From a virus, in the IMG/VR virus record IMGVR_UViG_3300044980_000021, positions 1-45,983 of that record: DNA of 45,983 nt; one strand, 5' to 3'. The notes below the pieces were generated by a model. The model did not search any database, was not told where the DNA came from, and saw nothing but the letters and a program-made list of their open reading frames with translations. Each line of letters opens with the position of its first letter. Position 1 is the first letter of the stretch. A program made the position numbers and the translations under genes. This document shows, in pieces, positions 1-45,983 of the stretch.

Positions 1-127
1 CGGCGTTAACGAGGTACTCCAGCGCCGCTTCTTTCGTGCCTTTGAATTTACGGTTGTACTGCATTATCGCCTCGCAATCAGGGTCGCGGTCAGGTGCAAC
101 GCTGCCATCTGAGGCGCTGTCTGGGTA
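1..127. repeat. Terminal direct repeat copy 1 (identical to 45857..45983); circular-assembly overlap
   Basis: Bases 1-127 equal bases 45857-45983 base for base. ORFs are continuous across the join. Unique length is 45,856 bp. Confidence 0.95.
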
Positions 128-579
128 GGCAGAGCAGGCTTAACCAGTGAAGCGGTCAACGTAGGCGCTCCCAGCGTAGGCGCAAGCGGGCTTGCCGGAA
201 CAACCTGTGCCGTAGTCTCGTTCGATGGGCCGCTGGTTCCGGGGTTAGCTCCCGTCTGCACGGTATTGACCACGTAATAGGCAGTCAGGCCCGCTGCGGT
301 GGAGTCGGTGTAGGACGTACCGATAGCCGGTGACGCCTGGTTAAGCTGCGTCCATGCCGCGCTGTTCGACGTTACGCAAGTCGCTGCGGAGCCAGCGCAA
401 CGGCTGACGACATAAGAGCATGGCGAGGCCGAGACGCATCCAACCCAGGTGCTGCCCGATGCGGGTACTGGAGCAACCCAGGTCAGATTGACGACATAGC
501 TTGTGGGCGTTGGGAGCTGCGCTTTGCAGCCTGCGGAAATCAGCAGCAGAACGGGGAGAAGGAAGGCGATGCGTTTCAT
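64..579 (-). CDS. Secreted FN3-like protein with N-terminal signal peptide (possible lipoprotein), 171 aa
   Basis: Start trimmed from 705 to ATG 579 (MKRIAFLLPVLLLISAGC...), preceded by AAGGAG. Hydrophobic h-region is followed by Cys18. The LTWVAP...YVVSR...GTSYTDST...AYYVV pattern is typical of fibronectin type III domains. Its stop overlaps (TAATG) the ATG of the 45687..45920 gene across the join. Confidence 0.75.
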   Translation of the reverse strand: MKRIAFLLPVLLLISAGCKAQLPTPTSYVVNLTWVAPVPASGSTWVGCVSASPCSYVVSRCAGSAATCVTSNSAAWTQLNQASPAIGTSYTDSTAAGLTAYYVVNTVQTGANPGTSGPSNETTAQVVPASPLAPTLGAPTLTASLVKPALPTQTAPQMAALHLTATLIARR

Positions 580-587
580 GGTGCTCC

Positions 588-1004
588 TTACGGGAGGGTT
601 TCTGGCTTTACATCTTGCGCGATATTCGCTGCGGCGCCGGAAGTCGAGTCTGAGCGTTTGTACGTGAGAATGATCGTAGCCACTCCGAAGATAGCCGTGG
701 CCCATTTGGGGTGATCTGAGAGAGCGCCGACGATAAGGCTGCGAACCTGTTGATTGCCGACGATGAGTCCAGCCGCACTGACTATCAGAACCGCGATGCT
801 GTGAGAACTAAAGTTGTGGTCTTTTAGCCACGCAACGATAGGATTGGTGCTGCTCGGAACCTTGATGATGGCAGGCTGCGTAGCTACTGGAACACTGTTT
901 GTAAAGGTAGGCGGTATAAATTGCACCTCGGCGGGCTGCGGAGGAGGGTTAGGCGGATTCTTGCCGGGCTGAGGAATAGGATTTGGCCCCGAAGGTGTGC
1001 TCAT
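588..1004 (-). CDS. Membrane protein with Pro-rich N-terminus and two predicted TM helices (holin-like candidate), 138 aa
   Basis: ATGA overlap with the upstream gene. Contains a PNPIPQPGKNPPNPPPQP tract and hydrophobic stretches SIAVLIVSAAGLIVG and WATAIFGVATIILTY. Confidence 0.7.
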   Translation of the reverse strand: MSTPSGPNPIPQPGKNPPNPPPQPAEVQFIPPTFTNSVPVATQPAIIKVPSSTNPIVAWLKDHNFSSHSIAVLIVSAAGLIVGNQQVRSLIVGALSDHPKWATAIFGVATIILTYKRSDSTSGAAANIAQDVKPETLP

Positions 1005-1393
1005 CTTGTCACTCCATAATCAGGAACTTGAGAGTCTTGTGCGTCCTGCTGCATGTACTGGCGGCCAAACAGATCGTGTGGAATCAACTCAGCGTGCTTG
1101 GCGTAGTAAACCGTCACCATTATACCCGCGATTGTTGCCACCAAAGCAGCAAAAGCGATGAGGGCCATCATGATATTCAACTTGAATGAGTTCTCCCTGT
1201 GGCGGTCCTCGTTTACTTTTTCTCTCTCTTTTTCGATGACTTTAATATTGGACATAAAAGTTCGCACCTCTTCTAAGATAGGCCGCGAGGTCGTGTCAAT
1301 GTAAACCTGATGGTAGTTGACACGTTGCTCGATGCCATCCACTCTGCCTGCAAGTTGAGTCAATTCGATATGCACGTTTCCGCCTTCGGCCAT
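1001..1393 (-). CDS. Coiled-coil protein with single TM helix, 130 aa
   Basis: GAGGA SD upstream of ATG 1393. Charged helical N-half (IKVIEKEREKVNEDRHRE), then TM segment IMMALIAFAALVATIAGIMVTVYY. Confidence 0.7.
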   Translation of the reverse strand: MAEGGNVHIELTQLAGRVDGIEQRVNYHQVYIDTTSRPILEEVRTFMSNIKVIEKEREKVNEDRHRENSFKLNIMMALIAFAALVATIAGIMVTVYYAKHAELIPHDLFGRQYMQQDAQDSQVPDYGVTR

Positions 1394-1462: not shown

Positions 1463-4400
1463 TCAATACAGTCCATTTTGCGAATAAATGTACCAGCCGT
1501 TTGTTTCGAGGTGAACCGCTGTCGACGCCGCAGCCACATTCCACATGGCTGGAGATAAGGTTGTCGTTGAAGCCGGTAGCGTCGTGCTCACCGTAGCGCT
1601 TGTCGTTCCCACAGTGCAGACCGCCGAACTAGGCCCGATATTGATGTTCCAAGTGGTAAAAGTCGTAACAGGAATAACGGTACCAATTGGAGTTACGGTC
1701 TGCGAGGTTCCGTTGCTTGAAACACACTGATATTCCGCGTCTGCCGCAGTGTTTGAGTAGCGGATCATCACATACGCGCAAGCCGGGTTATCGCTGGCTT
1801 CCTGAGTAGCCGCAGTGCAGTTTGTAAGGCCGAACCAGATGCGCGATGAGGTTCCTGAGGCGAAGTCACTGCTGGCGTTGTAACCTATTCCTCCCTGCAT
1901 GACGGGCTGACGGTTCATATAGGAATTGGCAGCGGTTCCCATCCATCCCGCGCAGTTGCCAGCCGTAGCTGTCGATGTCGAAAATGCGACAGAAGGAGTA
2001 GCGGCTCCAGACCCGGTAGGAACATAGGTAGCAGAGGTGCAAGGATTAAATGCTCCTCCTAGCCCATTAAGAAGCCCTGTGGCGGCGGTGCCACCGACCA
2101 TGGCAACCTCTACGCACCCATTGAGGAAGTTGCAACTTCCGGTGACACTCAAAGCATTTGTGACGATGGAGTGAACTGTAGCTGTATTTGCAACTTTCGT
2201 GCTGTTGTCGCTGCTGGCAAGCGTTACAGACGTGCTTCCACTCGCAAGAGGAATAGGGCTACTGAAGTTCGGAACAAGAGATACGGTGCTGATCGACTCA
2301 TTACCCAAAACACCATTGAAATAGAAGACTTCGATTAGGTCTCCCGTGGGAACTGCGGAGGTATTGACGTTGCAGGCATCCGCAGACCCAAACTGACCGT
2401 GGTAAGCGAAGGTGTTTGCCGCAGTCACGGTGTAGTTGCAGGTCTGAATCGTAGTCGATGCCGTCGCATCACGAACAGTGAAAGATATGGTTCCGGTGGC
2501 AGATGTCTGCAACCCTACAACAAGATTCATGCTTGTCGTCAACGGAACCCTGTATCCAGGTCCAGCCAAAAACGGCTGTCCTTTTGCGATGAGAACTACC
2601 TGTCCGCTTGAGGTGGATGGGGAAAATAGATATCCACTTCCTTGCGGACTGCCATCTCCGGGGGTACTCAGCGCGAAAGTGACAGAGCCAGCTCCAGAGC
2701 CGCCTAGTGAAACTGTTGCGTAATCTAAAATCAATCCACAAAACGAAGTGAATGGGGTAGCGGTATATCCACTGAGAAATTCACCGTCGAACATCCCCGG
2801 CTGGCATCTGGCCTGATTGATAACCTCTGGGCTGGCGAGGCTGTTTGAGGGCGTAGCCTGCACATAATTGCCTACTCCGGTGTCGTTTACCATTGATGCA
2901 AGGGTGCTGTTTCCTGTTGATATCACTAGATCAAGAAAGGTATTTGCTGCCCCTGAAAGTTGTATAGGGGCAACTGCCGCCGTGCCTCCAGCCAAGCTTC
3001 CCATCTCCACGTCAGTCACAAAACTATTGCCGGCAGTCCACTGAATCTGCGGTCCGTTACACTGCATCAACGATGCCGCGTTAATAGTCCACTGCGTTCC
3101 CGCCCAGTAAGTTCCTGTACCGGAATTTCCGAAGGTTGAACCACCGTAGCATTCCCAATATAAGTGCGTTACGGTTGACGTGCCCGTTTTATTCTCTGGG
3201 CCATTGAACATCATGGCTCCGTAAGAAAAGGTCTGTCCGCCACCGTACAGGTTTACGCCGTCATATAGGCTGTGATTTCCCGCGATCTGAATCAAAGGGA
3301 ATCGGTTGCTCAGAGACATCGCAAACATGGTCCGCGTATCGGGAGTCCATGTGATATTGTTCGCGCTGGTAGGAATGGCATCCACGATTCCGTAATAAGT
3401 GAACTGCGAACTGATGTGCTCGAACTTCGCGTAATAAGGAGGCTGCTGGAAGAACATTGAGCAGGTATAGTTGGTTTCCTGTTGATTAGGGATGCTCGGA
3501 GTCAGAAAGAACAGGTCTTCAAACTGCATTTGAACACCGCCAACATTTGCTCCACTAGATGCTGGGAATACTACTCCACAGTTTCCTATAGGCCAGCCAG
3601 TCGAACCGGGGATGATGCCCGTAAGCACTCCCCCATTCAGAAACCCAAAGCTGCCGGATTGGTTCGTTCCTGCGGTGCCTCCGGTTACGGTCGCCGTAGT
3701 CGAGTTAACAATCGTAAATGAGGCATTGGTCAGGCCGAGACCTGAAGATGTAATCGCCAACTGCGCTGCGACGTTGGGAGCATAATTTGTCGGGAAATTA
3801 CAATGCGGGCAAGTCAGGGTAGTTCCTGAAAGCGTGGCATCATCAAAGACCACCGGGCCTGCCGCAACTGCCGGTGAAACGGCGGTGATTCCACCACTTC
3901 CATTTGCAGCGACTCCAGCAACACGATTTGCAGTGGTAACAAACCCCGGAGACCCTCCTACCACATACGGATTCCAGATTTGCCCCGCTCCGAAAGTGCT
4001 TGAAGACACGTCCTCGCTGCCGTCAACCTGAACTTTGAATCCCCGCCACGTCTGATAGCCGTTGTTTACTCTGATTCCATCCGGCCATTGGAATACGTCC
4101 TGCCCTGGAAGTCCAGCGATGGTAGTGACCATGGAGCCTTGTCCCATGATAGATACAGGGTTTGCTACGGTTCCACCGGCGCTGAGGTCGATAGTTCCCG
4201 TCAAGCATGCAAGCCCCTTATTGGAAGGAAACAGCAATACGGCATTGGCCGAGGCGGCAGCGTTGTATGCGGATTGGATTGCCGCTGTATCGATGGTTCC
4301 AATTTCAAATTGCCCCGTTACCGCAGTGGTAGCCGCATTCGCTAAAGTGGCCTGCGTACCTCCGCTCTGGACAGATACGACAGTCGTAATAAGCGGGCCC

Positions 4401-4972
4401 GGCGCTCCGTTGGCTCGCAAGGCTCCTGCTGCCCAGACAATCGCCGTACGTCCTACCATCGCAAAAGTGAATCCTGATCCGATGAGAGTTGTGGAATTGG
4501 CTGCAATGGTTCCTGTGGGAAAAACCTGCATATTACACTGCGCGTTGTAGGGAGGTGCCATCACGTTGATTTGGTTGTTTACGGATGCGGTGACTGAAGT
4601 AATGGTAATGGAGGCGCTTGCAGAAAACTGCACATCAGACGCAGAAATGACGTTTTGATCGGTATATGTCAGAAGTCCGGTGTATGGGCTGTTATAGGTT
4701 ACCGTGACGCATCCTTGCGCGGCATAAGCTACTGCATGGCCGAATCCGTCCGTGAGAAGCGGCTGATTGAGAGTCGTTCCGTTGGCTGTCGAATAAAGTT
4801 GCGCTAAAGTTCCCGTTTGAGCTGTTCCGCAAGCTGCCTGAGCATAGACAAAAATCTGCGCGCCTGGCACAGCTTGCCCCTGAGCCGTTTGCAGGCTGAA
4901 GTCAATGCGTCCATAGGTGTTCTGCGCGGCCAATGGTGCGGCAAATAGCAGCAATGCGAGAATCTTTTTCAT
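1463..4972 (-). CDS. Tailspike/tail-fibre-like protein with pectate-lyase-type beta-helix region and Sec-type signal-like N-terminus, 1169 aa
   Basis: N-terminus MKKILALLLFAAPLAAQ. The DTAAIQSAYNAAASANAVLLFPSNKG...IMGQG motif resembles Pectate_lyase_3 / tailspike depolymerase entry motifs. The rest is long, Gly/Ser/Thr/Asn-rich beta-type sequence. GAGGA SD. Confidence 0.7.
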   Translation of the reverse strand: MKKILALLLFAAPLAAQNTYGRIDFSLQTAQGQAVPGAQIFVYAQAACGTAQTGTLAQLYSTANGTTLNQPLLTDGFGHAVAYAAQGCVTVTYNSPYTGLLTYTDQNVISASDVQFSASASITITSVTASVNNQINVMAPPYNAQCNMQVFPTGTIAANSTTLIGSGFTFAMVGRTAIVWAAGALRANGAPGPLITTVVSVQSGGTQATLANAATTAVTGQFEIGTIDTAAIQSAYNAAASANAVLLFPSNKGLACLTGTIDLSAGGTVANPVSIMGQGSMVTTIAGLPGQDVFQWPDGIRVNNGYQTWRGFKVQVDGSEDVSSSTFGAGQIWNPYVVGGSPGFVTTANRVAGVAANGSGGITAVSPAVAAGPVVFDDATLSGTTLTCPHCNFPTNYAPNVAAQLAITSSGLGLTNASFTIVNSTTATVTGGTAGTNQSGSFGFLNGGVLTGIIPGSTGWPIGNCGVVFPASSGANVGGVQMQFEDLFFLTPSIPNQQETNYTCSMFFQQPPYYAKFEHISSQFTYYGIVDAIPTSANNITWTPDTRTMFAMSLSNRFPLIQIAGNHSLYDGVNLYGGGQTFSYGAMMFNGPENKTGTSTVTHLYWECYGGSTFGNSGTGTYWAGTQWTINAASLMQCNGPQIQWTAGNSFVTDVEMGSLAGGTAAVAPIQLSGAANTFLDLVISTGNSTLASMVNDTGVGNYVQATPSNSLASPEVINQARCQPGMFDGEFLSGYTATPFTSFCGLILDYATVSLGGSGAGSVTFALSTPGDGSPQGSGYLFSPSTSSGQVVLIAKGQPFLAGPGYRVPLTTSMNLVVGLQTSATGTISFTVRDATASTTIQTCNYTVTAANTFAYHGQFGSADACNVNTSAVPTGDLIEVFYFNGVLGNESISTVSLVPNFSSPIPLASGSTSVTLASSDNSTKVANTATVHSIVTNALSVTGSCNFLNGCVEVAMVGGTAATGLLNGLGGAFNPCTSATYVPTGSGAATPSVAFSTSTATAGNCAGWMGTAANSYMNRQPVMQGGIGYNASSDFASGTSSRIWFGLTNCTAATQEASDNPACAYVMIRYSNTAADAEYQCVSSNGTSQTVTPIGTVIPVTTFTTWNINIGPSSAVCTVGTTSATVSTTLPASTTTLSPAMWNVAAASTAVHLETNGWYIYSQNGLY

Positions 4973-5779: not shown

Positions 5780-7309
5780 CTATTGATTGTCTCTGGCTTG
5801 CTTCAATGCTGTTTTGCGAACTTTTCCCTGCTCGCGTAAATTCTGCACTCTGGCTGCTTCCTGCGCTTCTGCATCGCGTGCTGCATTTTGCGCAGCGGAC
5901 AGATCCATAAACCTCTGAGTTCTGGCCTTCACTCCGGGCGATTGCATCGCGCCTTCAATATCTGGAACTATCGTCTGCAGTGCTGGCTGTCCAACCGATT
6001 GTATCCCGTTCCATAATGGAGCACGCTGCGGAACAGCCTCCGCTGCGACAGGAGGATTCAACGTTGGGAGCGGTTGAGCCTGTCCAGGGAAATTCCTGAT
6101 TGCGCGCTGGAATTGCCGGTCCGCTATCGCCGTTGGTCCGCCACGTACCATATCCAGCAATTTCGATGGCATCTGTGAAAGATGTAACGGTCCTTGTTCG
6201 GCCCTTCCTTCACTCTGCATTCTTGAGGTTACAGCAGCGTTCGTATCGTTCGCTAGTTCATATCCACGTCCTACGCGCTGGCGAAGATTGACAATATCAT
6301 CCGGCCGTAGACCAGTCGCCTGCGCAAGGTTTTGATGAAGAATATCCCGTAATTTCGATGCTTCCGCCTGCAAATCCTGCTTGCTGGCGAGTGCGCGCCT
6401 CGCATCGTCAGAGTTAAGGGCAGGCTTATCGAGTTGCTTGTTGATTTCTACCACGCGCTTGTCGATATCGCTCAAAGTAGCATAGGTATCAGGACTCTCC
6501 CCTTTGCGCTCACCGAATCCGGTTCCTGTCGTCTTCACCGTCCTATCATTCGGTTTGAGAATCTGGTTTTCGTAGAAATCTCTCGCCTCTTGTGCGCTTC
6601 CTTCTGCAGCCTTTGAAAACTCCAACTGAGTCCGCAGATTGTTCCCGGTTCGTTTCGCATAATCGAGCACATTGGGAACCTCATGCGGAGCTGCCTGGAT
6701 GAAATTCGAAGCATCTTTTGTTGCTGGCAAAATGGCTTGACTGAGTTTACGAGAAGCCATTTCTACTGGAGGAACAATATCGGCAGACGGCATAGGACGA
6801 AGATTGCGCAATCCATTCCCCGCCGCTTCCGCCGTACGCCCCACAAGAGGCCCAGCAGCTTCTCCAAGCGCGGCTCCTCCCATAAGATTGCCGAGTTGAT
6901 GCGGGAGTGCCTTTTCAGCGCCATTCTGAACGAAATCTTCTACCGCTGGCCGCGCCATCTCCCCCGCCACTCCCCACGGTGTACCTTGTCCGCGGCTAAT
7001 GGTTTCTCCAATCCCCTTTATAGTTTGGATTGGATGCATGAAAGGTGCCCCAATACCCTCTACGATGCCCGCTCCAACGCGGCCAGCAAAACGCCCCACA
7101 GGGCCGACACCTTGCTCGTCTTCTGGAGTGACAGTAGTAAACCTATCAAATCCTTTTTGAATAGCGTTACGAGTATCGGTAGGTGCTGCTGCTCCCGATT
7201 GCCAGAGCTTCCAATCCTGATTGCCAGCGGGCACAGATCCGCTTGACGCCTGCGGCTTGAAGTTCTTCGCCGCCTCTACCCAAGGATCGGTTTGCTGTTG
7301 CTGCTCCAC
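5780..7309 (-). CDS. Internal virion / ejection protein candidate, 509 aa
   Basis: GTG start shares one base with the upstream TAG. Gln/Ala/Arg-rich helical sequence. Third of three consecutive such genes, as in podovirus ejection-protein sets (positional inference). Confidence 0.6.
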   Translation of the reverse strand: MEQQQQTDPWVEAAKNFKPQASSGSVPAGNQDWKLWQSGAAAPTDTRNAIQKGFDRFTTVTPEDEQGVGPVGRFAGRVGAGIVEGIGAPFMHPIQTIKGIGETISRGQGTPWGVAGEMARPAVEDFVQNGAEKALPHQLGNLMGGAALGEAAGPLVGRTAEAAGNGLRNLRPMPSADIVPPVEMASRKLSQAILPATKDASNFIQAAPHEVPNVLDYAKRTGNNLRTQLEFSKAAEGSAQEARDFYENQILKPNDRTVKTTGTGFGERKGESPDTYATLSDIDKRVVEINKQLDKPALNSDDARRALASKQDLQAEASKLRDILHQNLAQATGLRPDDIVNLRQRVGRGYELANDTNAAVTSRMQSEGRAEQGPLHLSQMPSKLLDMVRGGPTAIADRQFQRAIRNFPGQAQPLPTLNPPVAAEAVPQRAPLWNGIQSVGQPALQTIVPDIEGAMQSPGVKARTQRFMDLSAAQNAARDAEAQEAARVQNLREQGKVRKTALKQARDNQ

Positions 7310-8643
7310 TATTGCACCGTCCAGCCAGCCTGCTTGGCCAATTCTTTCGCTTTCGCGGGGTCTCCGTTTGCTTGTCCAAGGTAATAATTGATCGTCGCCT
7401 TACCTGGAATCCTGTCTGGGCCATCATCTTTTGCGCCCAGGTATTTAGCTGTCGAGCGTGCTTTCTGCGTGTCCTCCGCATATCTCTCGTGTCCAAGGTC
7501 TACCATCTGCCGCATCTGATTTGGAGAAAGTGTTACGCCTGCCAAGTACCCATTGTTGTCGAATTTTGCTTCCATACCCTGCAACCAGGGTTGAGATTGC
7601 TGCGCTTCGTGAATAATATCCTTCGTCATACGAGCGCCCTTTTGCAGACCCATCGTCATTCCGAGATGGTTTGCGAGAAGATTTAACATGGCCTGCTGAT
7701 CGTGATTCTTGATTGCCTTTTCGTAGGCATCTGTCATCACGTTCATGCGTTCTGCTGATTCTTGCGCCGGAGTGTACGCCTTCAACGTCTCTTGCCTTAC
7801 AGCAACGTCCTGCTTGCCTTCTTCGCGGTTTCCGGTATAAATGTTGGTCGCCTGTTGACCAAGCGTTTTTCTGTCCCTGTATGCCTTAGCAAAGGCATTT
7901 TCTTCAGGAGTAACCGGCTGGCCTTCAATGTGCTTGGCTACAATACCCTCGTACTTCTGGTCATCTTCCGCTGCCGTATCCGGCTTATCCTTGGAGGGTG
8001 GCTCATATCGCTTGATTCCAGTAGGAGCATTTGGAACAACGCGCATTTGCCCGGTGAGTTTGTTTTCCTGTATCGGCTCTCCATTCGGACCTACATATTC
8101 CTTGTTGATTTCCCACGCGCTTTTTTCTACCGGATTTTCTAATGATTGCGCGCGCGCATCTGCCTCGTTAGCCTGCGATCCTTCCAATGACCGCTTACTC
8201 GAGTCATTCAGCCGCGTTTCCGACGCCTGTTGTTCGGTGCGGTCCTGAGCCTGCAATCCGGCCAACTGCCGCGCACGGAAGTTATTCGCTTCAGGTCCGA
8301 TTCCAACCTGACCCAGAGAATGCGTAACAAGCTCAGTCGTACCGGGAGCGACAATATCCCCAGCTACCCGGCCCACGGTTCCCGCGATATGCCGAAGGTT
8401 CTGCCAGAATCCCTGCGGCTTCTGCTGTAAGGCCTGCTGTAACTGCTGCTCCTGCTGTTGCCGTGGACTGGTAATGATAGGCTTCAGCATCGGCGGCATA
8501 GACGGCTGCGGAGCAGTTCCTAATGACGGAAGCGGGCCTAGCGATGGAATTCCACTATCGGGAGCACGCAAGCCGCCCAGTTTAGGAGCAAGTTTGCCCT
8601 GCGTAGGGTCATCTGGAAGCGGCAATATGGGAGTGAGGTTCAA
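7309..8643 (-). CDS. Internal virion / ejection protein candidate, 444 aa
   Basis: The ORF-track start 8721 would overlap the upstream gene by 82 nt. TTG at 8643 overlaps the upstream TGA (TTGA) and has GGAGGAGG 6 nt upstream. Pro-rich N-region, then helical sequence. Confidence 0.6.
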   Translation of the reverse strand: MNLTPILPLPDDPTQGKLAPKLGGLRAPDSGIPSLGPLPSLGTAPQPSMPPMLKPIITSPRQQQEQQLQQALQQKPQGFWQNLRHIAGTVGRVAGDIVAPGTTELVTHSLGQVGIGPEANNFRARQLAGLQAQDRTEQQASETRLNDSSKRSLEGSQANEADARAQSLENPVEKSAWEINKEYVGPNGEPIQENKLTGQMRVVPNAPTGIKRYEPPSKDKPDTAAEDDQKYEGIVAKHIEGQPVTPEENAFAKAYRDRKTLGQQATNIYTGNREEGKQDVAVRQETLKAYTPAQESAERMNVMTDAYEKAIKNHDQQAMLNLLANHLGMTMGLQKGARMTKDIIHEAQQSQPWLQGMEAKFDNNGYLAGVTLSPNQMRQMVDLGHERYAEDTQKARSTAKYLGAKDDGPDRIPGKATINYYLGQANGDPAKAKELAKQAGWTVQ

Positions 8644-9182
8644 CCCTGACCTCCTCCGTTCATCTTCGCCGCGGCTAGCCTGGTAGCGTCCTGACCAATA
8701 GACAAAATACCACTCAACCACGGAGGCATCTGATTCGCCGTCTGCAAGTCCTTAGCCTGCACCTCACCCTCTCCAGTCTGCGCGTTGGCAGCCATGCCGT
8801 AGAGCCTGGAAAGGTCGCCGGAAGCGGTGTTCTGCTGATTAAGTTTCACATCGGCATTGTTGGCTGCAATCTTCTCGCCAACCATCGCATTTCCCTTATC
8901 GGCAGATCGCGCGGCGGCGTCTAAGGCCCCAGAGAATCCCATCGGATTACGGGTATCCATACCCATTTTCCCTGCTGCTCCGGTAAGACCTGCGGTAGCG
9001 CCTCCGGTTCCTGCAAGCCCCTGAGTGATTTGCGCACCGATATCGCGCTGGCTCATGCCGGTGGGGTTGGTCATCTGGCGAGTCAAAAAGGGGATTACAT
9101 TCGATCCGATGCCGCCAGCCGTAGCGCCATAAGCGCCAGCCGCGGAGCCCGCTGTATTGGCTGCTGCCTGCGAGTCTCTCAT
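8640..9182 (-). CDS. Gly/Ala-rich internal virion protein candidate, 180 aa
   Basis: ATGA overlap with the upstream HNH gene stop. AAANTAGSAAGAYGATAGGIG-type low-complexity N-terminus. First of the three-gene ejection-protein-like set. Confidence 0.6.
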   Translation of the reverse strand: MRDSQAAANTAGSAAGAYGATAGGIGSNVIPFLTRQMTNPTGMSQRDIGAQITQGLAGTGGATAGLTGAAGKMGMDTRNPMGFSGALDAAARSADKGNAMVGEKIAANNADVKLNQQNTASGDLSRLYGMAANAQTGEGEVQAKDLQTANQMPPWLSGILSIGQDATRLAAAKMNGGGQG

Positions 9183-9658
9183 TGCACCCTCGCAAATTCA
9201 CCATGAAGAGCCTTTGCGGCGGCGCCATAGGCATCCGCGGCCTCCTCTAGTGAATTAAAAAGTCCTAAATCATAACGCTTCTTGTCTTTATGGATCATGG
9301 CTCGATATTTGCCGTCTGCATGGATATGCACGCCCTTGACTCCAAGCCGATTATTTTTATGTGCTCCCCTATTGCACTTATTTTGCGAGCTGCTAGCAAT
9401 CCTTAAATTATGGCGCTGATTGTCCAGTCCGTTTTCAGATCGATGCTCTCCTTCTCGCTTATCCCCGAAAGCGAGACCCAATATCTCCCTGTGCATATAG
9501 TGCGCAAAGGTTTTTCCATACTGATAGGTGAATCTGACAGCATAAAACCGATTTGATCGGTTGCTTTTGTATGCCGTCCATTCAAATTTATTGAGAACAT
9601 CGAAATCGCAGTCATCTACCAGTGCGATCTTTCCGTTTTTTAGGGAAATCTCACGCAT
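9179..9658 (-). CDS. HNH-AP2 homing endonuclease, 159 aa
   Basis: HNH core HREILG...GEHRSENGLDNQRHNLRIASSSQNKCN, then an AP2-type DNA-binding domain GVKGVHIHADGKYRAMIHKDKKRYDLGLFNSLEEAADAYGAAAKALHGEFA. Start set to ATG 9658 (MREISLKNG), which overlaps the GNAT gene stop by 8 nt. Confidence 0.85.
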   Translation of the reverse strand: MREISLKNGKIALVDDCDFDVLNKFEWTAYKSNRSNRFYAVRFTYQYGKTFAHYMHREILGLAFGDKREGEHRSENGLDNQRHNLRIASSSQNKCNRGAHKNNRLGVKGVHIHADGKYRAMIHKDKKRYDLGLFNSLEEAADAYGAAAKALHGEFARVQ

Positions 9659-10049
9659 GAGTCGATATGCTCCACGGATGCCACCCGCTGCGGTTTGGCG
9701 TCCATCCAAGTTGAGCTAGGCGCTTCTGGAAGCGTCGTTCGATGGTCTCAGGGATTCGAGCTTCAATGTCATCTAAACCATTCTGCCACGCCGCGCGCAA
9801 AACCTCTGGCTGCATCAGGTTCATTGCATCCATCTTACAACGAGGCGATAATTCAGGCGCAAGCCATAAATATGTTTCCGCACAGATTCTCAGAAAGCAT
9901 GCCCCCACGACCTCACCGCCATTTTCAACAACCTTGCGAACGAAGAATAAGGGATGCCCTAACTCTGGAAGCCGATAGTCAGACCCCATAGCCTCGTGGA
10001 TTCCTGCGATCCTCGAAAAATCGCTCGAATCTGCATCTCTGACTATCAT
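9651..10049 (-). CDS. GNAT-like N-acetyltransferase-fold protein, 132 aa
   Basis: Size and pattern (IVRDADSSDFSRIAGIHEA...FFVRKVVENGGEVVGACFL...ETYLWL) resemble small GNAT proteins. The canonical Q/RxxGxG/A motif is not obvious. ATGA overlap with the upstream gene. Confidence 0.5.
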   Translation of the reverse strand: MIVRDADSSDFSRIAGIHEAMGSDYRLPELGHPLFFVRKVVENGGEVVGACFLRICAETYLWLAPELSPRCKMDAMNLMQPEVLRAAWQNGLDDIEARIPETIERRFQKRLAQLGWTPNRSGWHPWSISTHA

Positions 10050-29844: not shown

Positions 29845-30270
29845 CTATTCTTCCTTCGACTCGCTGCCAATGTGGCGCACTACCAGCTCAATTGCCCCGC
29901 CATTCTCGCCTGTATGTGCTAGCTTATCGCCGTACTTCTTCGGGGCCAGCTTGGATGCTCTCCACTGATACGCGCTGATCTTAACCTTTGTGCTTTGATA
30001 GTTTTCCTCGTCACACGCCTCAGCGGCTTCGATGATCTTGTCGTCCATCAAATCAGCCTGCATTTCCCTCGCGCGCGCGCACTTGGCCTCAAAATCTTTA
30101 TTGTCTGCCATCCATCTCAACACTGAAGCACGAGACGGAAAACCTTCAGATTGACAGATTTGCCTCATACTCTCGCCTTCTATGAGACGTTCACATATTT
30201 TTTCGGCAATAGATTCTGAGTAGTGCATTAATGGGGATATCCTTTGAAGCCCGTCTTTCCGAGCTGCCAC
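29845..30270 (-). CDS. terS: Terminase small subunit, 141 aa (alternative start ATG 30228)
   Basis: SIAEKICERLIEGESMRQICQSEGFPSRASVLRWMADNKDFEAKCARAREMQADLMDD...WRASKLAPKKYGDK matches the HTH-type small-terminase family seen in many podophages. The ORF-track start is GTG. Confidence 0.7.
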   Translation of the reverse strand: MAARKDGLQRISPLMHYSESIAEKICERLIEGESMRQICQSEGFPSRASVLRWMADNKDFEAKCARAREMQADLMDDKIIEAAEACDEENYQSTKVKISAYQWRASKLAPKKYGDKLAHTGENGGAIELVVRHIGSESKEE

Positions 30271-39232: not shown

Positions 39233-39430
39233 ATCTCCCTCTCATAACTACAAAGCTTTGCGCGGGCCGGGCTTGATACCGGCTATCCCAGTTAACCTCC
39301 GATTGATTACGGAGTACCGTTAGCTAGTTGGCCTGCATTTCTGCTACCAACGGACGCACTGGGGAATCTCACGGTGCCAACGCGTGTCCAATCCACGCCG
39401 CCGCGCATTCCAGCACTCTCGTGCCAGAAG

Positions 39431-39676
39431 TTAAGACTTGGATTTAGGTTGTACCAGATATTGCCTAGACAAATTCTCCATCGCGTAAAGCACCTCATGC
39501 ACGTCTCTCTGATTAACTCCAGAAGAATGAGAAATGAGTAGTTTGATAGCTTTGAAGTTGAGCCCAGATCGCAATAATGCACTGGTAGCGTTGGAAATCT
39601 TGACGATAGACTGCGCAATCACCTGGGCAGCTACTTCCTCTTCGCCTGGTTTCTGTACCACATTTACCTTGCTCAT
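39431..39676 (-). CDS. Small early protein, 81 aa
   Basis: Start moved to ATG 39676 (GGAG SD, ATGA overlap with the upstream stop). Confidence 0.6.
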   Translation of the reverse strand: MSKVNVVQKPGEEEVAAQVIAQSIVKISNATSALLRSGLNFKAIKLLISHSSGVNQRDVHEVLYAMENLSRQYLVQPKSKS

Positions 39677-40990: not shown

Positions 40991-41227
40991 ATGACTATTG
41001 CGGTCTGTACCGTAGCCTTTCTTATCGTCGCCTACGCAGCCTTCCGCATACTCGCGCACTGGTCTTGTAGCGATATTGGCATTCACGAAGATCAGCCAGT
41101 GTTTGAGCGCCAATGGCGGCGCAAGGCCGGAAGGTGGTTCTGCAAAACGTTCCACCGGCACGTGATTGCGGACGGCTACAAGCGTTGCACTGTACGTGGC
41201 TGCGGCGAGATGTGGCGGCTTAAATGA
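40991..41227 (+). CDS. Small membrane-anchored Cys/His-rich protein, 78 aa
   Basis: GGAGG SD. N-terminal TM segment TIAVCTVAFLIVAYAAFRIL. Confidence 0.65.
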   Translation: MTIAVCTVAFLIVAYAAFRILAHWSCSDIGIHEDQPVFERQWRRKAGRWFCKTFHRHVIADGYKRCTVRGCGEMWRLK

Positions 41228-41334
41228 GCAGGAAAGAACTAATCTGTATCGTGTTTCACCGCATATTTCATCGCAAGATAATTTACCCCCGGATTTGGAT
41301 GTGCGAGAAGTGCGGCAGGAAATGGATTCGGTAG
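41224..41334 (+). CDS. Possible 36-aa basic peptide
   Basis: ATGA overlap with the upstream stop. Sequence MSRKELICIVFHRIFHRKIIYPRIWMCEKCGRKWIR. It competes with the TTG-initiated 60-aa ORF 41166..41348 in another frame. Confidence 0.3.
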   Translation: MSRKELICIVFHRIFHRKIIYPRIWMCEKCGRKWIR

Positions 41335-41344
41335 GAGAGAATAC

Positions 41345-41533
41345 ATGAAGTTTTCGGAAAATGTAGGGCGCTTCATGATGCTTATATCTGCAATAGCTTT
41401 ACGCTGGCTTATTGTGCAGTGTGTATGGGCGGTAGTGCGAGGAACGCCGGATAGGAAAGCGGATCTTGTGTGCATGGTAGTCGCGGTACTCTGGATACTT
41501 TCAGACATGCTGATTTTGGAGGTCAAGCGATGA
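41345..41533 (+). CDS. Small membrane protein (2 TM), 62 aa
   Basis: AGGAGAG SD. Hydrophobic stretches FMMLISAIALRWLIVQCVWAVV and LVCMVVAVLWILSDMLIL. Confidence 0.65.
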   Translation: MKFSENVGRFMMLISAIALRWLIVQCVWAVVRGTPDRKADLVCMVVAVLWILSDMLILEVKR

Positions 41534-41712
41534 ATTTCAGCTTTAAGATGCTTCCGGCTGTTATATTTTCAGCTTTCTCATTAGGGATTGACCTGGCCTG
41601 CGCTTTTGGATATACATGTACGTTTCAACAGGGCATATCCTTGGCAATCATATCGGCATGCCTTCTTGTCGCATCTACTATCTGGGGCTTTGTCCAAATA
41701 GAAAGGAATTGA
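41530..41712 (+). CDS. Small membrane protein (2 TM), 60 aa
   Basis: Start moved to ATG 41530 (ATGA overlap, GGAGG SD). Hydrophobic stretches LPAVIFSAFSLGIDLACAF and ISLAIISACLLVASTIWGFV. Confidence 0.65.
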   Translation: MNFSFKMLPAVIFSAFSLGIDLACAFGYTCTFQQGISLAIISACLLVASTIWGFVQIERN

Positions 41713-43141: not shown

Positions 43142-43425
43142 GCGAAGAAATCAGAACATGTGCCTATTGTGGCGCAGAAAAGTGTGAACATTCTTACCAT
43201 TATGCGAGGAAATTTCTTGGCTATAAGAAGGGATTTTCAATCAAGTCGGAAAATGTTTCCGCGCAGACGACTATCGGAGAGCTAAAGGAATCATTGAATG
43301 AGTGGGTTTCACGTATGAGCGATGACACTCCCGCGACGTGGATGTTCAGTATCACTAAACGCGGCGCTGCAATAGACCCGGTCCCCGCACCGCCATCAGT
43401 AACCCAGAAAGAGGGTAAAGAATGA
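43138..43425 (+). CDS. Small protein with N-terminal CxxCxxxxC motif, 95 aa
   Basis: Start moved to ATG 43138 (ATGA overlap). Confidence 0.6.
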   Translation: MSEEIRTCAYCGAEKCEHSYHYARKFLGYKKGFSIKSENVSAQTTIGELKESLNEWVSRMSDDTPATWMFSITKRGAAIDPVPAPPSVTQKEGKE

Positions 43426-43778
43426 TTATTGTAGCGAAAATGGTGTTATTTACCAGTATGTTCATCAATCAAGTTCCTGCTAACGTACAGGCTATGAATG
43501 AACTGTCTAATGCGGCAGAACTTTATCTTGTTTACTGCTCCCCACGCAATAAGGCGTGCGTCACACGGAGAGCCATTTGCTACGGGCAGTGTGGCGACCA
43601 AAGTACTGCCGACGAGATGGGATACGGTTGCTCTGGTGACATCGAGGGCCACGTGCCAAATGGATTTCGCTACGCCAGATGGTTTTCTGCTGCTTACGCG
43701 ACCGGCAAAACAATCGGTGGCCTGGCAACGAAAAACTACAGAAGTCCAGATCACCTCGCCTGCACTAATAGGCACTGA
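43422..43778 (+). CDS. Cys-rich protein with hydrophobic signal-like N-terminus, 118 aa
   Basis: ATGA overlap. N-terminus MIIVAKMVLFTSMFINQVPANVQA, followed by six Cys. Confidence 0.55.
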   Translation: MIIVAKMVLFTSMFINQVPANVQAMNELSNAAELYLVYCSPRNKACVTRRAICYGQCGDQSTADEMGYGCSGDIEGHVPNGFRYARWFSAAYATGKTIGGLATKNYRSPDHLACTNRH

Positions 43779-45020: not shown

Positions 45021-45050
45021 GCGGCATCTAATTTTCGCACCCAACACAAA

Positions 45051-45087
45051 GGCCCGGAGTGATTGCTCACTGCCGGGCCTCTCTTAT
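45051..45087. terminator. Bidirectional intrinsic terminator between convergent operons
   Basis: GGCCCGGAGTGA-ttgc-TCACT(g)CCGGGCC is a 12-bp stem with one bulge. It is flanked by TCTCTTAT on the plus strand and TTTGTGTT on the minus strand. Confidence 0.75.
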
Positions 45088-45096
45088 GCCATGAAG

Positions 45097-45684
45097 TTAG
45101 ATAGTAGCTTTGGCAATTGCAGGATGCTGAGCTGCGATTGCGTTGTGGGCCGTTTTGTATTCTGCGGCTGTCATCGGAACCGTCACGGACACGGTTGATC
45201 CGCCCGGCGCCGTGGCAATCTGGAAGGTGCTGATCCAAGCCTCCATCTGCGAAATGATGAGCTGAGCAAGATTCACAAACGGCGCACTGGCTGTTGCGGG
45301 GATGCCAAAGTCAGCCAGCAGGTTCGATGCGTTGGAGATGACCGCCTGTGCAGCCTGCTCTACGTCTGTGAGCGGCGTGGTGCCAGGATTGGCCTTGTAT
45401 GCCGCCACCATCTGTTGAAGCGTCTGGATAGCGGATTCCACGGTTTTTCCGATGGCGTTCAGCTCGGCTACTGCGGCCCCGAATTCCGGGTTTCCCGTCA
45501 GAGAGCCGATAGCGGTGATGATTGCGCCTGCACTGAGCAGGATTTGCGGCACGATGGTTTCAGCGTCACTGAGCCATACAGGAAGGCCAGCGCAACCGGT
45601 CAGGTAGCAGGTAGCGCCGGCCATGAGCAGGAAGAATCCAAACCACACGATCTGGCGATGGTAAACAGACAAGAACTTTTTCAC
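45097..45684 (-). CDS. Lipoprotein (signal peptide with LTGC lipobox), 195 aa
   Basis: GTG start with AAGGAG 6 nt upstream. N-terminus MKKFLSVYHRQIVWFGFFLLMAGATCYLTGC. Ala-rich helical mature part. Last gene of the late operon. Confidence 0.7.
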   Translation of the reverse strand: MKKFLSVYHRQIVWFGFFLLMAGATCYLTGCAGLPVWLSDAETIVPQILLSAGAIITAIGSLTGNPEFGAAVAELNAIGKTVESAIQTLQQMVAAYKANPGTTPLTDVEQAAQAVISNASNLLADFGIPATASAPFVNLAQLIISQMEAWISTFQIATAPGGSTVSVTVPMTAAEYKTAHNAIAAQHPAIAKATI

Positions 45685-45686
45685 GA

Positions 45687-45920
45687 TTACTCCTTTTCGT
45701 AGGTTACTTCAATTAGCATTGCGCCACTTTCGGGAATCTCTGGATAGACCCCGTATGCGGCTGAAGCAGAAATGTTGACCTGTGAGCCTTCCGGCACACC
45801 TTTCACATAATCGAAGATGAACTGGCTTGTGGCTGCAGAGAACGTATCCGCATTTCCGGCGTTAACGAGGTACTCCAGCGCCGCTTCTTTCGTGCCTTTG
45901 AATTTACGGTTGTACTGCAT
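45687..45920 (-). CDS. Small protein, unknown function, 77 aa (start lies inside the terminal repeat)
   Basis: Its ATG overlaps the stop of the 64..579 gene once the contig is circularised. Confidence 0.6.
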   Translation of the reverse strand: MQYNRKFKGTKEAALEYLVNAGNADTFSAATSQFIFDYVKGVPEGSQVNISASAAYGVYPEIPESGAMLIEVTYEKE

Positions 45921-45983
45921 TATCGCCTCGCAATCAGGGTCGCGGTCAGGTGCAACGCTGCCATCTGAGGCGCTGTCTGGGTA
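45857..45983. repeat. Terminal direct repeat copy 2 (identical to 1..127)
   Basis: Base-for-base identity with 1..127. Confidence 0.95.

Follow-up and report, generated by a model that had tools for sequence, protein, structure and literature searches.

How does a phage lyse a diderm host when no endolysin can be recognized in its closed genome? Phage lysis of diderm bacteria is understood as a sequence of three steps, by holin, endolysin, and spanin, a picture for which proteobacterial phages have been nearly the sole source. We investigated this question in a soil phage represented by a stretch of 45,983 nucleotides (IMG/VR record IMGVR_UViG_3300044980_000021, positions 1 to 45,983; the whole stretch is called the window below), which has among its relatives a prophage found in the acidobacterium Terracidiphilus, with its left arm beyond a contig break. 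From their context and architecture, the last five genes of its late operon are, on balance, probably a phage lysis module without a recognizable wall-degrading enzyme.

Layout of the late-operon end and search for an endolysin

A sequence-only reading had placed these five genes at the end of the late operon of a closed genome, running across the circular join, and it was confirmed by the open reading frame calls, all five on the minus strand, and by an exact 127-bp overlap of the window ends, which gives a circle of 45,856 bp (Table 1). IMG/VR classes the genome among those with direct terminal repeats and rates it 100% complete. The cassette follows the tail-fiber gene and is itself followed by a strong terminator. 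Four of the five genes were preceded, at a distance of 5 to 9 nt, by a Shine-Dalgarno sequence of the GGAG/GAGG type, and the 77-aa gene, which has GAGG upstream, was also translationally coupled, its ATG overlapping the stop of the 171-aa gene in a TAATG that spans the join. The terminator expected after the 195-aa gene was recovered by RNA folding as a hairpin at about 45049-45081 (dG of -30.3 kcal/mol, z = -4.0) that none of 200 shuffles equaled; it separates the cassette from a convergent plus-strand early block.

Table 1. Positions of the cassette genes and neighboring features in the window (SD, Shine-Dalgarno sequence)
Feature	Position	Strand	Basis or remark
Assembly overlap	1..127	.	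Identical to 45857-45983; circular join inside cassette
171-aa lipoprotein (predicted)	64..579	-	ORF; strong SD AAGGAG
138-aa Pro-rich 2-TM protein	588..1004	-	ORF; hydropathy
130-aa tail-anchored membrane protein	1001..1393	-	ORF; hydropathy; SD GAGGA
1169-aa tail-fiber/tailspike-like gene	1463..4972	-	Directly upstream of cassette
Intrinsic terminator	45043..45081	-	Hairpin, then UUUGUGUU; RNA fold
195-aa lipoprotein (predicted)	45097..45684	-	GTG start; lipobox LTG-C31; SD AAGGAG
77-aa acidic soluble protein	45687..45920	-	ORF; TAATG-coupled to 171-aa gene

The sister genomes have a structural module, from TerS to a 262-aa protein, in common, and their cassettes are mosaic. Two of them, G002 (IMGVR_UViG_3300009618_000002) and G004 (IMGVR_UViG_3300029944_000021), are complete with terminal repeats and have the virion module in common with the window, with TerL proteins that are 67 to 73% identical. 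When 8 kb of the window was compared to GenBank phages by blastn in its distant mode, no match was obtained, and the proteome of this lineage was almost wholly unrecognizable by sequence. The 1169-aa protein had no Pfam or PHROG match; its N terminus is signal-peptide-like, and its conservation among the relatives was limited to approximately the first 106 residues. Neither this protein nor the 1707-aa virion protein matched any PDB sequence at an E value of ≤1 by phmmer.

All 68 open reading frames were compared to Pfam and to PHROGs, and no lysin family was matched in either. NCBIfam likewise gave nothing for the cassette proteins and their holin-like relatives. Six-frame scans were negative for GH24 (PF00959), GH108 (PF05838), Amidase_2 (PF01510), SLT (PF01464), and Peptidase_M15_3 (PF08291), and the positive controls for the GH24 scan, G002 and G004, were detected with PF00959 at E values of 6e-13 and 6e-11. 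The profile of every window protein was also aligned by hhalign with those of six types of lysin encoded in related cassettes, and the top probability was 4.7%. Structure models were made for the 195-aa and 171-aa proteins, 2 of the 68, and no lysozyme-, amidase-, or peptidase-like fold was present in either the helical bundle of the former or the FN3-like sandwich of the latter. A regular-expression scan for NlpC/P60, M15, SLT, GH24, M23, and HExxH motifs had a single match, a GCSG in a secreted, Cys-rich early protein of 118 aa (43422..43778). This protein was rejected as a lysin, its homologues in other phages adjoining ERF/YqaJ recombination genes. As a separate observation, one phage with such a homologue has a normal M15_3 endolysin elsewhere. 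Gene distribution was no more informative: no window gene was confined to the lysin-less relatives G003 and G015 and missing from the GH24 carriers. Taken together, these tests upheld the earlier claim that no endolysin is recognizable in this genome.

Cassette proteins and their relatives

Four of the five proteins had been described from the sequence as a coiled-coil protein with one TM helix (130 aa), a Pro-rich protein with two (138 aa), an FN3-like protein with a signal peptide (171 aa), and a lipoprotein with an LTGC lipobox (195 aa), and each description was sustained, the coiled coil by eye and the FN3 fold tentatively, on a model with a pLDDT of 66. The 130-aa protein begins with a charged, helical, coiled-coil-like domain of approximately 72 residues, continues with a single strong TM segment at approximately residues 73 to 96 by hydropathy, and ends in a conserved tail of approximately 34 residues. 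Six Lys or Arg residues lie just before the TM segment versus two after it, which suggests that the N terminus is inside. Homologues were found in L059/L060 (46%) and in L064 and L065 (31%), and in L065 a GH24 lysozyme gene follows three genes downstream. The equivalent position in G002, G003, G004, G015, L058, L061, L063, and L069 is taken by proteins with this architecture, and an alignment of tail-anchored proteins from five phages contained zero conserved columns; as judged from these comparisons, the likeness lies in the architecture and extends to the sequence only for the true homologues from L059, L064, and L065. The XhlA profile PF10779 had no match at an E value of ≤1 in the scan of the window open reading frames, nor at ≤10 in six frames of G000-G004, G008, and G015, and membership of the 130-aa protein in the XhlA sequence family was rejected. 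It does have the architecture of XhlA, being small, with an N-terminal helical domain, a C-terminal TM segment, and a gene directly upstream of a 2-TM gene. We consider it a candidate holin or holin partner of XhlA-like architecture.

The 138-aa protein contains 20 prolines, with a Pro-rich N-terminal stretch of 60 residues, and two hydrophobic segments by hydropathy, a strong one at residues 69 to 83 and a weaker one at 101 to 115. It is 57% identical to its homologue in L059/L060. Residues 57 to 128 match a 2-TM domain that forms the N-terminal part of three fusion proteins (P0023, P0026, and P0036). The C-terminal half of each matches the 195-aa lipoprotein, a Rosetta-stone link between the 195-aa and 138-aa proteins. 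Because the fusions place the lipoprotein signal peptide after both TM segments, the 2-TM domain is predicted to have both termini inside. No holin family in Pfam, PHROGs, or NCBIfam was matched, and no endolysin gene adjoins the gene here; the protein is best described as a holin-like candidate of the class II type.

The 195-aa protein has a signal sequence up to the LTGC and, by hydropathy, a second hydrophobic helix at residues 43 to 62. Its mature part of approximately 165 residues forms a bundle of about five helices, the first of which (36 to 62) is strongly hydrophobic, in an all-helical AF2 model (pLDDT 84, pTM 0.69) that had no fold match in PDB or BFVD (best E values of 0.6 and 0.4). 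The protein belongs to a family of helical-bundle lipoproteins of about 200 aa with 133 representative clusters at an E value of ≤0.001, whose members are covered by no Pfam family. All 130 aligned members have the lipobox Cys, with Gly or Ala before it, and the only other near-invariant residues are W37, G64, Y96, L105, I108, and N181; the alignment contains no conserved Glu, Asp, His, non-lipobox Cys, or catalytic-type residue. Eleven members carry strict Tat motifs, 8 or 9 are fused behind a 2-TM domain, one such natural fusion being the 292-aa protein of L061, and the L059 homologue has no signal peptide. Family members were found in L063, L069, L071, L061, and G003, and pattern scans of viral, metagenome, and genome contigs returned either nothing or the prophage G003 alone. 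A helical 161-aa cassette protein of G002 that had looked like a relative by eye was rejected (BLASTP E value of 1.8). We regard the 195-aa protein as a candidate for a spanin-equivalent lysis factor of the outer membrane or periplasm.

The 171-aa protein is also a predicted lipoprotein, a point missing from the sequence-only reading. Behind a signal peptide with the lipobox SAG-C18 come an FN3-like beta-sandwich rich in disulfides and then a Pro-rich linker; the protein closes with a conserved C-terminal strand, which has only about 8 to 10 hydrophobic or alternating residues and ends in a basic one. All 11 homologues retain G17, C18, and three further Cys. In the AF2 model, with a pLDDT of 66 overall and 73 to 85 across most of the domain, residues 163 to 170 were modeled as a strand, and the top 18 Foldseek matches of this model in PDB were all FN3 domains (E values of 0.01 to 0.15, probabilities of 0.9 to 1.0), the best of them with E values of 0.01 to 0.1, probabilities of about 1.0, and TM scores to the target of 0.5 to 0.64; the Pfam fn3 profile had no match to the protein at an E value of ≤1. 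The FN3 lipoprotein lies one or two genes from a 130-aa-type protein in the window, L059/L060, G003, L058, L064, and L065; the two always travel together.

The 77-aa protein had no hydrophobic segment or signal sequence by hydropathy and no family match in Pfam, PHROGs, or NCBIfam. Its only homologue is the 83-aa product, 35% identical, of the gene in the same cassette position in L059/L060, and no other turned up when viral contigs were scanned with a pattern.

The cassette of five genes recurs, again with no lysin, in L059 and L060, which come from two independent metagenomes and have the same gene order (131, 118, 178, 83, and 179 aa). In other soil phages, related and unrelated, its parts recur in shuffled order beside four classes of peptidoglycan hydrolase. 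The order in L063 is GH108, a tail-anchored protein of 87 aa, the 2-TM domain as a free gene of 71 aa, and a family lipoprotein of 197 aa; in L069, a tail-anchored protein of 80 aa, a 2-TM-lipoprotein fusion of 306 aa, and a Tlde1-domain protein of 128 aa; in L071, a family lipoprotein, two genes, and Hydrolase_2; and in L065, an FN3 lipoprotein, the 130-aa homologue, two small genes, and GH24. In G002 and G004 a GH24 gene occupies the slot after the tail fiber, in G004 overlapping the stop of the tail-anchored gene, and Pfam and PHROGs recognized the lysozymes alone among the cassette proteins of these two genomes. The earlier suggestion of a lysis slot, with the TM proteins and the lipoprotein as cassette parts, was thus supported by homologues or architectural equivalents that adjoin endolysins in G002, G004, L065, L063, L069, and L071.

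Explanations for lysis

We propose that, late in infection, the 130-aa tail-anchored and 138-aa 2-TM proteins would form an inner-membrane holin system analogous to XhlA/XhlB. Both lipoproteins would be exported via Sec and signal peptidase II and, whether in the periplasm or at the outer membrane, would carry out the final step in place of spanins. For this the 195-aa protein would use its buried hydrophobic helix, and the FN3 protein would be a partner of the periplasmic tail of the 130-aa protein. The slot that holds GH24 in the complete sisters G002 and G004 is empty in the window. Because the sisters and other carriers of the same parts encode ordinary endolysins, the cassette parts are expected to work with an enzyme. 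The muralytic activity most likely resides in a protein too divergent for recognition, probably located outside the three cassette proteins tested for it; this cryptic enzyme is assumed rather than located, because the structure models cover 2 of 68 proteins. Recruitment of host autolysins ranks second for the peptidoglycan step, as the next most likely source.

Lysis that is wholly endolysin-independent appears unlikely. Here the phage would have no peptidoglycan hydrolase; the holin-like pair would collapse the membrane potential, host autolysins would degrade the wall or a cassette product such as the 77-aa protein would block its synthesis in the manner of the amurins of small ssDNA and ssRNA phages, and the lipoproteins would finish the outer membrane. 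This would account for the negative outcome of every sequence and profile lysin test of a complete genome and for the recurrence of the lysin-less cassette in independent samples. The relative G015, which is 97% complete and lysin-free by Pfam, also agrees with it but fits a cryptic enzyme equally well. However, tailed dsDNA phages whose hosts have a wall are not known to lyse without a muralytic enzyme of their own, ordinary endolysins accompany the same parts in the sisters and other carriers, and the proteome of this lineage is nearly all unrecognizable by sequence. Nor is it rare, even among cultured phages, for an endolysin to go unidentified: of 58 phages with a u-spanin, one could be assigned in no more than 46 (PMC6139136). 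The strong form of this idea, in which a tailed dsDNA phage with a diderm host would need only a holin pair and two lipoproteins, host autolysins being unleashed or wall synthesis blocked, perhaps with the involvement of the coupled 77-aa protein, strikes us as quite unlikely. If it were true, the helical lipoproteins of about 200 aa would form a new class of lysis proteins that disrupt the envelope, delivered in some phages as a holin-lipoprotein polyprotein.

It is very unlikely that the cassette serves not lysis but superinfection exclusion or receptor masking, as "moron" lipoproteins like T5 Llp or Cor that are encoded, together with membrane proteins, beside the receptor-binding protein. 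Lipoprotein genes do lie directly after tail-fiber genes, the FN3 lipoprotein gene of L058 even overlaps the end of the tail-fiber gene, relatives encode several further signal-peptide proteins in the same region, and G003 is a prophage, in which exclusion genes would be expected. Yet the window genes lie inside the late operon, where no promoter of their own was detected, and proteins of the 130-, 138-, and 195-aa types repeatedly adjoin endolysins and are found fused to holin-like domains. A role as exclusion factor is possible for the FN3 lipoprotein only.

The sequence-only reading had also proposed that the 195-, 171-, or 77-aa protein could itself be a muralytic enzyme of a new fold, which now seems highly improbable. 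These candidates sit where the missing enzyme belongs, the 195-aa and 171-aa proteins are predicted to be exported to the peptidoglycan compartment, and nothing in PDB or BFVD has a fold like that of the 195-aa protein. Nevertheless, the 195-aa protein is a poor candidate, as a helical bundle with no lysin fold match, from a family without a conserved Glu, Asp, His, or Cys pair that coexists with GH108, Tlde1-like, and SleB-like enzymes in other phages; so is the 171-aa protein, a plain FN3-like sandwich with a linker, which coexists with GH24 in L065. The 77-aa protein lacks an export signal, is absent from the lysin-less cassettes of G003 and L058, and is smaller than known catalytic domains of endolysins. 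That the genome is defective or helper-dependent, or that its assembly lost an endolysin gene, is likewise highly improbable: the metagenome assembly is closed only by the 127-bp k-mer overlap and the join falls inside the cassette, but the join is in frame and keeps the TAATG coupling of two conserved genes, the gene order is the same at the equivalent point in L059 and L060, which come from other samples, all open reading frames are intact in a genome rated complete, and G015 is lysin-free as well.

If lysis relies on the cryptic enzyme that we favor, this would be a new type of endolysin from a phylum with almost no characterized phages. The cassette parts of this Acidobacteriota phage lineage fall outside all named families and include an unannotated lipoprotein family of at least 133 clusters, whose fusion in some phages to a holin-like domain makes it a candidate new outer-membrane or periplasmic lysis factor. 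The choice between endolysin-free lysis of a tailed phage and an undiscovered muralytic fold has become a testable question.

Comparison with known lysis systems

By sequence, the five cassette proteins all fall outside the named families of holins, spanins, and XhlA. Single-gene lysis proteins, or amurins (phiX174 E, Qbeta A2, and phage M Lys), bring about lysis without a phage-encoded muralytic enzyme and are not known outside small ssDNA and ssRNA phages; their parallel with the window would be enzyme-free lysis, which is relevant only to the endolysin-independent alternative. The exclusion and receptor-masking proteins T5 Llp and phi80/N15 Cor resemble the cassette in that a small lipoprotein gene lies beside the tail-fiber gene. 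They differ in having no sequence relation to the window lipoproteins, which sit among holin-like genes and one of which, the 195-aa type, is elsewhere fused to a holin-like domain and found beside endolysins.

Like the spanins of phages with diderm hosts (two-component lambda Rz/Rz1 and unimolecular T1 gp11; Kongari et al. 2018, PMC6139136), the window has lysis-cassette proteins with a lipobox after the putative holin, whose action, as for spanins, is presumed to be at the outer membrane. In both lipoprotein families the lipobox Cys expected of a signal peptidase II substrate is invariant (130/130 and 11/11), and lipidation is predicted. The FN3 lipoprotein also has, like many o-spanins, a Pro-rich segment and periplasmic cysteines (three invariant Cys), but it contains a folded domain and has no i-spanin partner. 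Whereas o-spanins are short, Pro-rich, and largely unstructured, the mature part of the 195-aa protein is far larger and more ordered. In contrast to i-spanins, which have an N-terminal TMD and a periplasmic coiled coil and of which the window has none, the coiled-coil 130-aa protein is anchored C-terminally. U-spanins such as T1 gp11 combine an N-terminal lipobox, a C-terminal TMD, and beta structure, whereas neither window lipoprotein has a C-terminal TM segment by hydropathy.

The two putative holins of the Bacillus subtilis element PBSX are XhlA and XhlB, the former being essential for lysis (PMC6834076). In xhlA-xhlB-xlyA, which closes the late operon behind the tail genes, a small, tail-anchored protein with an N-terminal coiled coil is paired with a multi-TM holin, and the 130-aa and 138-aa genes of the window present these architectures in the same order. 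The window differs in its diderm host, in having two lipoproteins in place of the amidase, with no enzyme gene recognized, and in its proteins not being XhlA members by sequence. The nearest comparison is with the sister genomes G002 and G004, which have a cassette in the same slot whose first gene likewise encodes a tail-anchored protein; they differ in having a T4-type lysozyme and in lacking homologues of all five window cassette proteins. The lineage provides a natural experiment, its sister genomes combining the same virion with either GH24 in the slot or no recognizable enzyme anywhere in the genome.

Cassette, genome and host

The two ends of the window share an exact 127-bp overlap, so the window is a closed 45,856-bp circle; the collection classes the record as a virus that is 100% complete and has direct terminal repeats. 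Minus-strand coding runs from the small terminase gene down through position 1 and over the join as far as 45097, forming a single long late operon. The five cassette ORFs at its end were all present as the sequence-only reading had described them, and their membrane and signal features were confirmed by hydropathy. Good Shine-Dalgarno sequences precede four of the five genes, a TAATG overlap couples the 77-aa gene to the 171-aa gene over the join, and the operon terminator is a strong hairpin with a U-tract behind it (dG -30.3 kcal/mol, z -4.0). The 171-aa protein carries the signal peptide claimed for it and was reclassified from secreted protein to lipoprotein, since the Gly-Cys ending the signal peptide was invariant in 11 homologues, as were three more Cys residues.

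Positions of the features discussed
Feature	Sequence	Position
Small terminase (minus)	window	29845..30270
Tail-anchored protein, 130 aa (minus)	window	1001..1393
2-TM protein, 138 aa (minus)	window	588..1004
FN3 lipoprotein, 171 aa (minus)	window	64..579
77-aa protein (minus)	window	45687..45920
Family lipoprotein, 195 aa (minus)	window	45097..45684
Homologue of 195-aa protein, 179 aa	L059	1736-2275
Tail fibre/tailspike (minus)	window	1463..4972
Tail fibre/tailspike counterpart	L047	308-4156
Tail fibre/tailspike counterpart	L036	6642-8123
Tail fibre/tailspike counterpart	L043	4950-6227
Tail fibre/tailspike counterpart	L056	10782-13172
Tail fibre orthologue	L039 (G004)	7118-8365
Helical protein, 509 aa	window	5780..7309
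HEATH-motif protein, 231 aa	L039 (G004)	9172-9867
132-aa protein	window	9651..10049
Three small membrane proteins (plus)	window	40991..41712
Cys-rich early protein, 118 aa	window	43422..43778
'NWKTT' gene	G015	39302-39493
'GDCTCAAV.H' protein	L063	3834-4022
'GDCTCAAV.H' protein, 251 aa	L071	6591-7346
G003 provirus (L068)	DASRHE010000016.1	21817-38401

No GenBank phage resembled the window at the DNA level. Pfam and PHROGs recognised few of its proteins: an Sf6-type small terminase, a weakly matched large terminase, DnaB, ERF, YqaJ, Lar, a GroES-like protein, a histidine phosphatase and three homing endonucleases. The lineage is highly divergent, to the point that no profile matched its portal or capsid. 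A TerL search yielded 33 related metagenomic viral contigs, among them two complete genomes, G002 (43,678 bp) and G004 (44,436 bp), and the provirus G003; G015 (42,164 bp, 97% complete; IMGVR_UViG_3300032893_000122) came from a later search. Within a Terracidiphilus sp. MAG, one 390-kb contig carries a prophage identical to G003 over the compared region, which indicates that the lineage infects Acidobacteriota. Left of terS, the MAG contig and the G003 metagenome contig stop at nearly one point, which leaves the prophage's left arm unassembled.

In the early region of the window, the plus-strand block opens with three adjacent membrane proteins, all small (78, 62 and 80 aa) and each having one to three TM segments, for which homologues were found in no relative. 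The Cys-rich early protein has an apparent signal peptide and homologues on phage-sized contigs (41 to 57 kb), and the homologous gene adjoins ERF or YqaJ recombination genes in both of the contigs inspected (L072 and L073).

The lysis slot in related genomes

The structural module, which extends from TerS through a 262-aa protein, is conserved among five relatives (G001 to G004 and G015) together with the first ~106 residues of the tail fibre, and the region beyond the fibre is mosaic. Directly past the fibres of G004 lies the gene of a 134-aa protein, helical in its N-domain and with a TM segment at its C-terminus; the stop of this gene and the start of a GH24 lysozyme gene (157 aa) overlap. 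The order in G002 is a tail-anchored protein (124 aa), a 2-TM protein (100 aa), two more proteins and a 162-aa GH24 lysozyme, and the late operon of G015 closes with a tail-anchored 115-aa protein alone, a 2-TM 'NWKTT' holin-like gene lying between terS and terL. These three cassettes identify the slot as a lysis slot, of which the tail-anchored protein is the constant element, and thereby support the proposal that the window genes are a lysis cassette. No lysin was found by Pfam in any non-shared gene of G015; two of the four near-complete lineage genomes therefore have a standard lysozyme in the slot and two have no recognisable lysin anywhere. The lysis genes of G015 are split, the 'NWKTT' gene being distant from the tail-anchored gene at the operon end.

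Several neighbouring genes were also compared. A signal-peptide-like segment opens the window tail fibre, and behind it comes a conserved ~100-residue N-domain that looks like the carboxypeptidase-regulatory type. G001, G002, G003 and G015 share this start, and the G004 orthologue opens with the N-domain itself. The fibre-to-lysis interval of relatives holds more signal-peptide genes, encoding 434-, 130- and 200-aa proteins in G002 and 267-aa LamG-like and 507-aa Kelch-like proteins in G003. Within the presumed ejection or internal virion protein block, the 509-aa helical protein had a homologue in none of six relatives, each of which has a different protein there; the G004 occupant bears a HEATH metallopeptidase motif. 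The 132-aa protein in the middle of this block is conserved across all relatives (38 to 72% identity) and by eye looks like a small GNAT-like acetyltransferase; nothing in Pfam or PHROGs matched it.

Cassette protein families

Homologues of the 171-aa protein were found on short metagenomic contigs. Two of these, L059 and L060, come from independent samples and have the identical five-gene order (131, 118, 178, 83 and 179 aa), with 46%, 57%, 47% and 35% identity to the first four cassette proteins; among the 17 genes of this contig, the sole Pfam match recorded was HNH. On contig L065, an FN3 lipoprotein is followed by a 130-aa homologue (31% identical), two small genes and a GH24 lysozyme, and in G003, L058 and L064 the tail-anchored protein directly follows the FN3 lipoprotein. 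These contexts show the FN3 lipoprotein and the 130-aa type to be a constant pair compatible with a normal lysozyme. The AF2 model of the 171-aa protein (pLDDT 66 overall, 73 to 85 across most of the domain) shows a beta-sandwich in which a Pro-rich loop is disordered and the conserved C-terminal strand takes strand form, and its top PDB matches were all FN3 domains. In the 130-aa protein, six K/R residues just ahead of the TM segment and two behind it suggest a cytoplasmic N-domain and a periplasmic 34-residue tail; this tail is near-identical in L059. The 77-aa protein has no export signal, and its gene is missing from the remaining lysin-less cassettes.

A word-index search with the 195-aa protein found a single relative. 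With a full HMMER profile, 133 representative clusters were recovered, almost all of ~200 aa, and 59 had E<=1e-10. No Pfam family covers the members. In the 134-member alignment, the lipobox Cys was present in all 130 sequences spanning that column and W37, G64, Y96, L105, I108 and N181 were strongly conserved. Conservation was seen at no acidic or His position and at no second Cys. Strict twin-arginine motifs occur in 11 members, and Asp almost never directly follows the lipobox Cys. The AF2 model (110 sequences) is a confident all-helical bundle (pLDDT 84, pTM 0.69), its first mature helix matching a TM segment in hydrophobicity, and Foldseek returned nothing significant (best E 0.6 in PDB and 0.4 in BFVD). 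The L059/L060 homologue has a hydrophobic segment in mid-protein and no signal peptide or lipobox, and starts with MCPNP right behind the stop of the 83-aa gene; either the family can switch its mode of membrane anchoring or the start is mis-set through a frameshift.

Family members recur in other cassettes. The order on L063 is a GH108 endolysin, tail-anchored protein (87 aa), 2-TM protein (71 aa) and family lipoprotein; on L069 a tail-anchored protein (80 aa) precedes a 306-aa 2-TM/lipoprotein fusion and a Tlde1-domain protein; on L071 a SleB-type hydrolase lies two genes after the lipoprotein; and on L061 a 292-aa fusion adjoins the tail-anchored gene. Such fusions make up 8 or 9 of the 134 sequences. 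In three of them, the N-terminal 2-TM domain matches residues 57-128 of the 138-aa protein and the C-terminal part matches the 195-aa protein, making these two genes a Rosetta-stone pair. Judged from sequence, the tail-anchored protein, 2-TM protein and helical lipoprotein are a recurrent lysis module whose attached hydrolases vary, with none in this genome. In two unrelated cassettes, a 'GDCTCAAV.H' protein, with no match in Pfam, lies directly behind the family lipoprotein and may be an uncatalogued lysis enzyme of the cysteine peptidase type.

The missing enzyme and a proposed mechanism

That the genome has no recognisable endolysin was borne out by each approach. All 68 ORFs, the entire genome, were scanned against Pfam and PHROGs, with small ORFs joined by X spacers, and no muralytic family was found, a result that extended to E<=1 for the cassette and neighbouring tail genes. 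Six-frame scans of the genome found no Phage_lysozyme, Glyco_hydro_108, Amidase_2, SLT or Peptidase_M15_3; positive controls for the Phage_lysozyme scan were detected (G002, E 6e-13; G004, E 6e-11). Profiles of each window protein, built from homologues in six relatives, were compared by hhalign to six hydrolase types of related cassettes (GH24, GH108, Tlde1-like, SleB-like, 'GDCTCAA' protein and YiiX-like), with a top probability of 4.7%, and motif scans of the window gave no credible lysin. Structure models covered the 195-aa and 171-aa proteins. The absence is robust at the sequence and profile level, which is not proof of absence.

We favor a cryptic muralytic protein encoded somewhere in the genome, because hardly any of the proteome can be recognised and because an endolysin was identified in just 46 of 58 u-spanin phage genomes surveyed by Kongari et al. 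(PMC6139136). Two earlier candidates are now unlikely to be that protein: the 195-aa family lacks conserved acidic, His or second Cys positions and is found with GH108, Tlde1-domain and SleB-type hydrolases, and the FN3-like fold of the 171-aa protein and the presence of a GH24 lysozyme in the L065 cassette count against an enzyme. Lysis driven by host autolysins or by inhibition of wall synthesis remains a second explanation and fits the lysin-less G015, and the window cassette is not yet evidence of enzyme-free lysis. An assembly error or defective genome is unlikely, as the join is in frame and L059 and L060 have the identical gene order. The most useful yield is a lipoprotein family that lacks annotation and is linked to holin-like proteins, along with a natural comparison of cassettes with versus without a lysozyme.

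Because the signal peptide of the fused lipoproteins must span the membrane N-in/C-out, the two preceding TMs would be N-in/C-in, a context that suggests class II holin topology for the 2-TM domain. For the outer-membrane step, genomic context leaves the 195-aa and 171-aa lipoproteins as the sole candidates, and neither clearly fits the definition of an i-, o- or u-spanin (Kongari et al., PMC6139136). The 130-aa and 138-aa proteins may act as a holin pair in the manner of XhlA/XhlB of PBSX. The XhlA profile did not match the window, and the likeness is one of architecture alone, to a system whose XhlA and XhlB both count as holins, XhlA being essential (PMC6834076).
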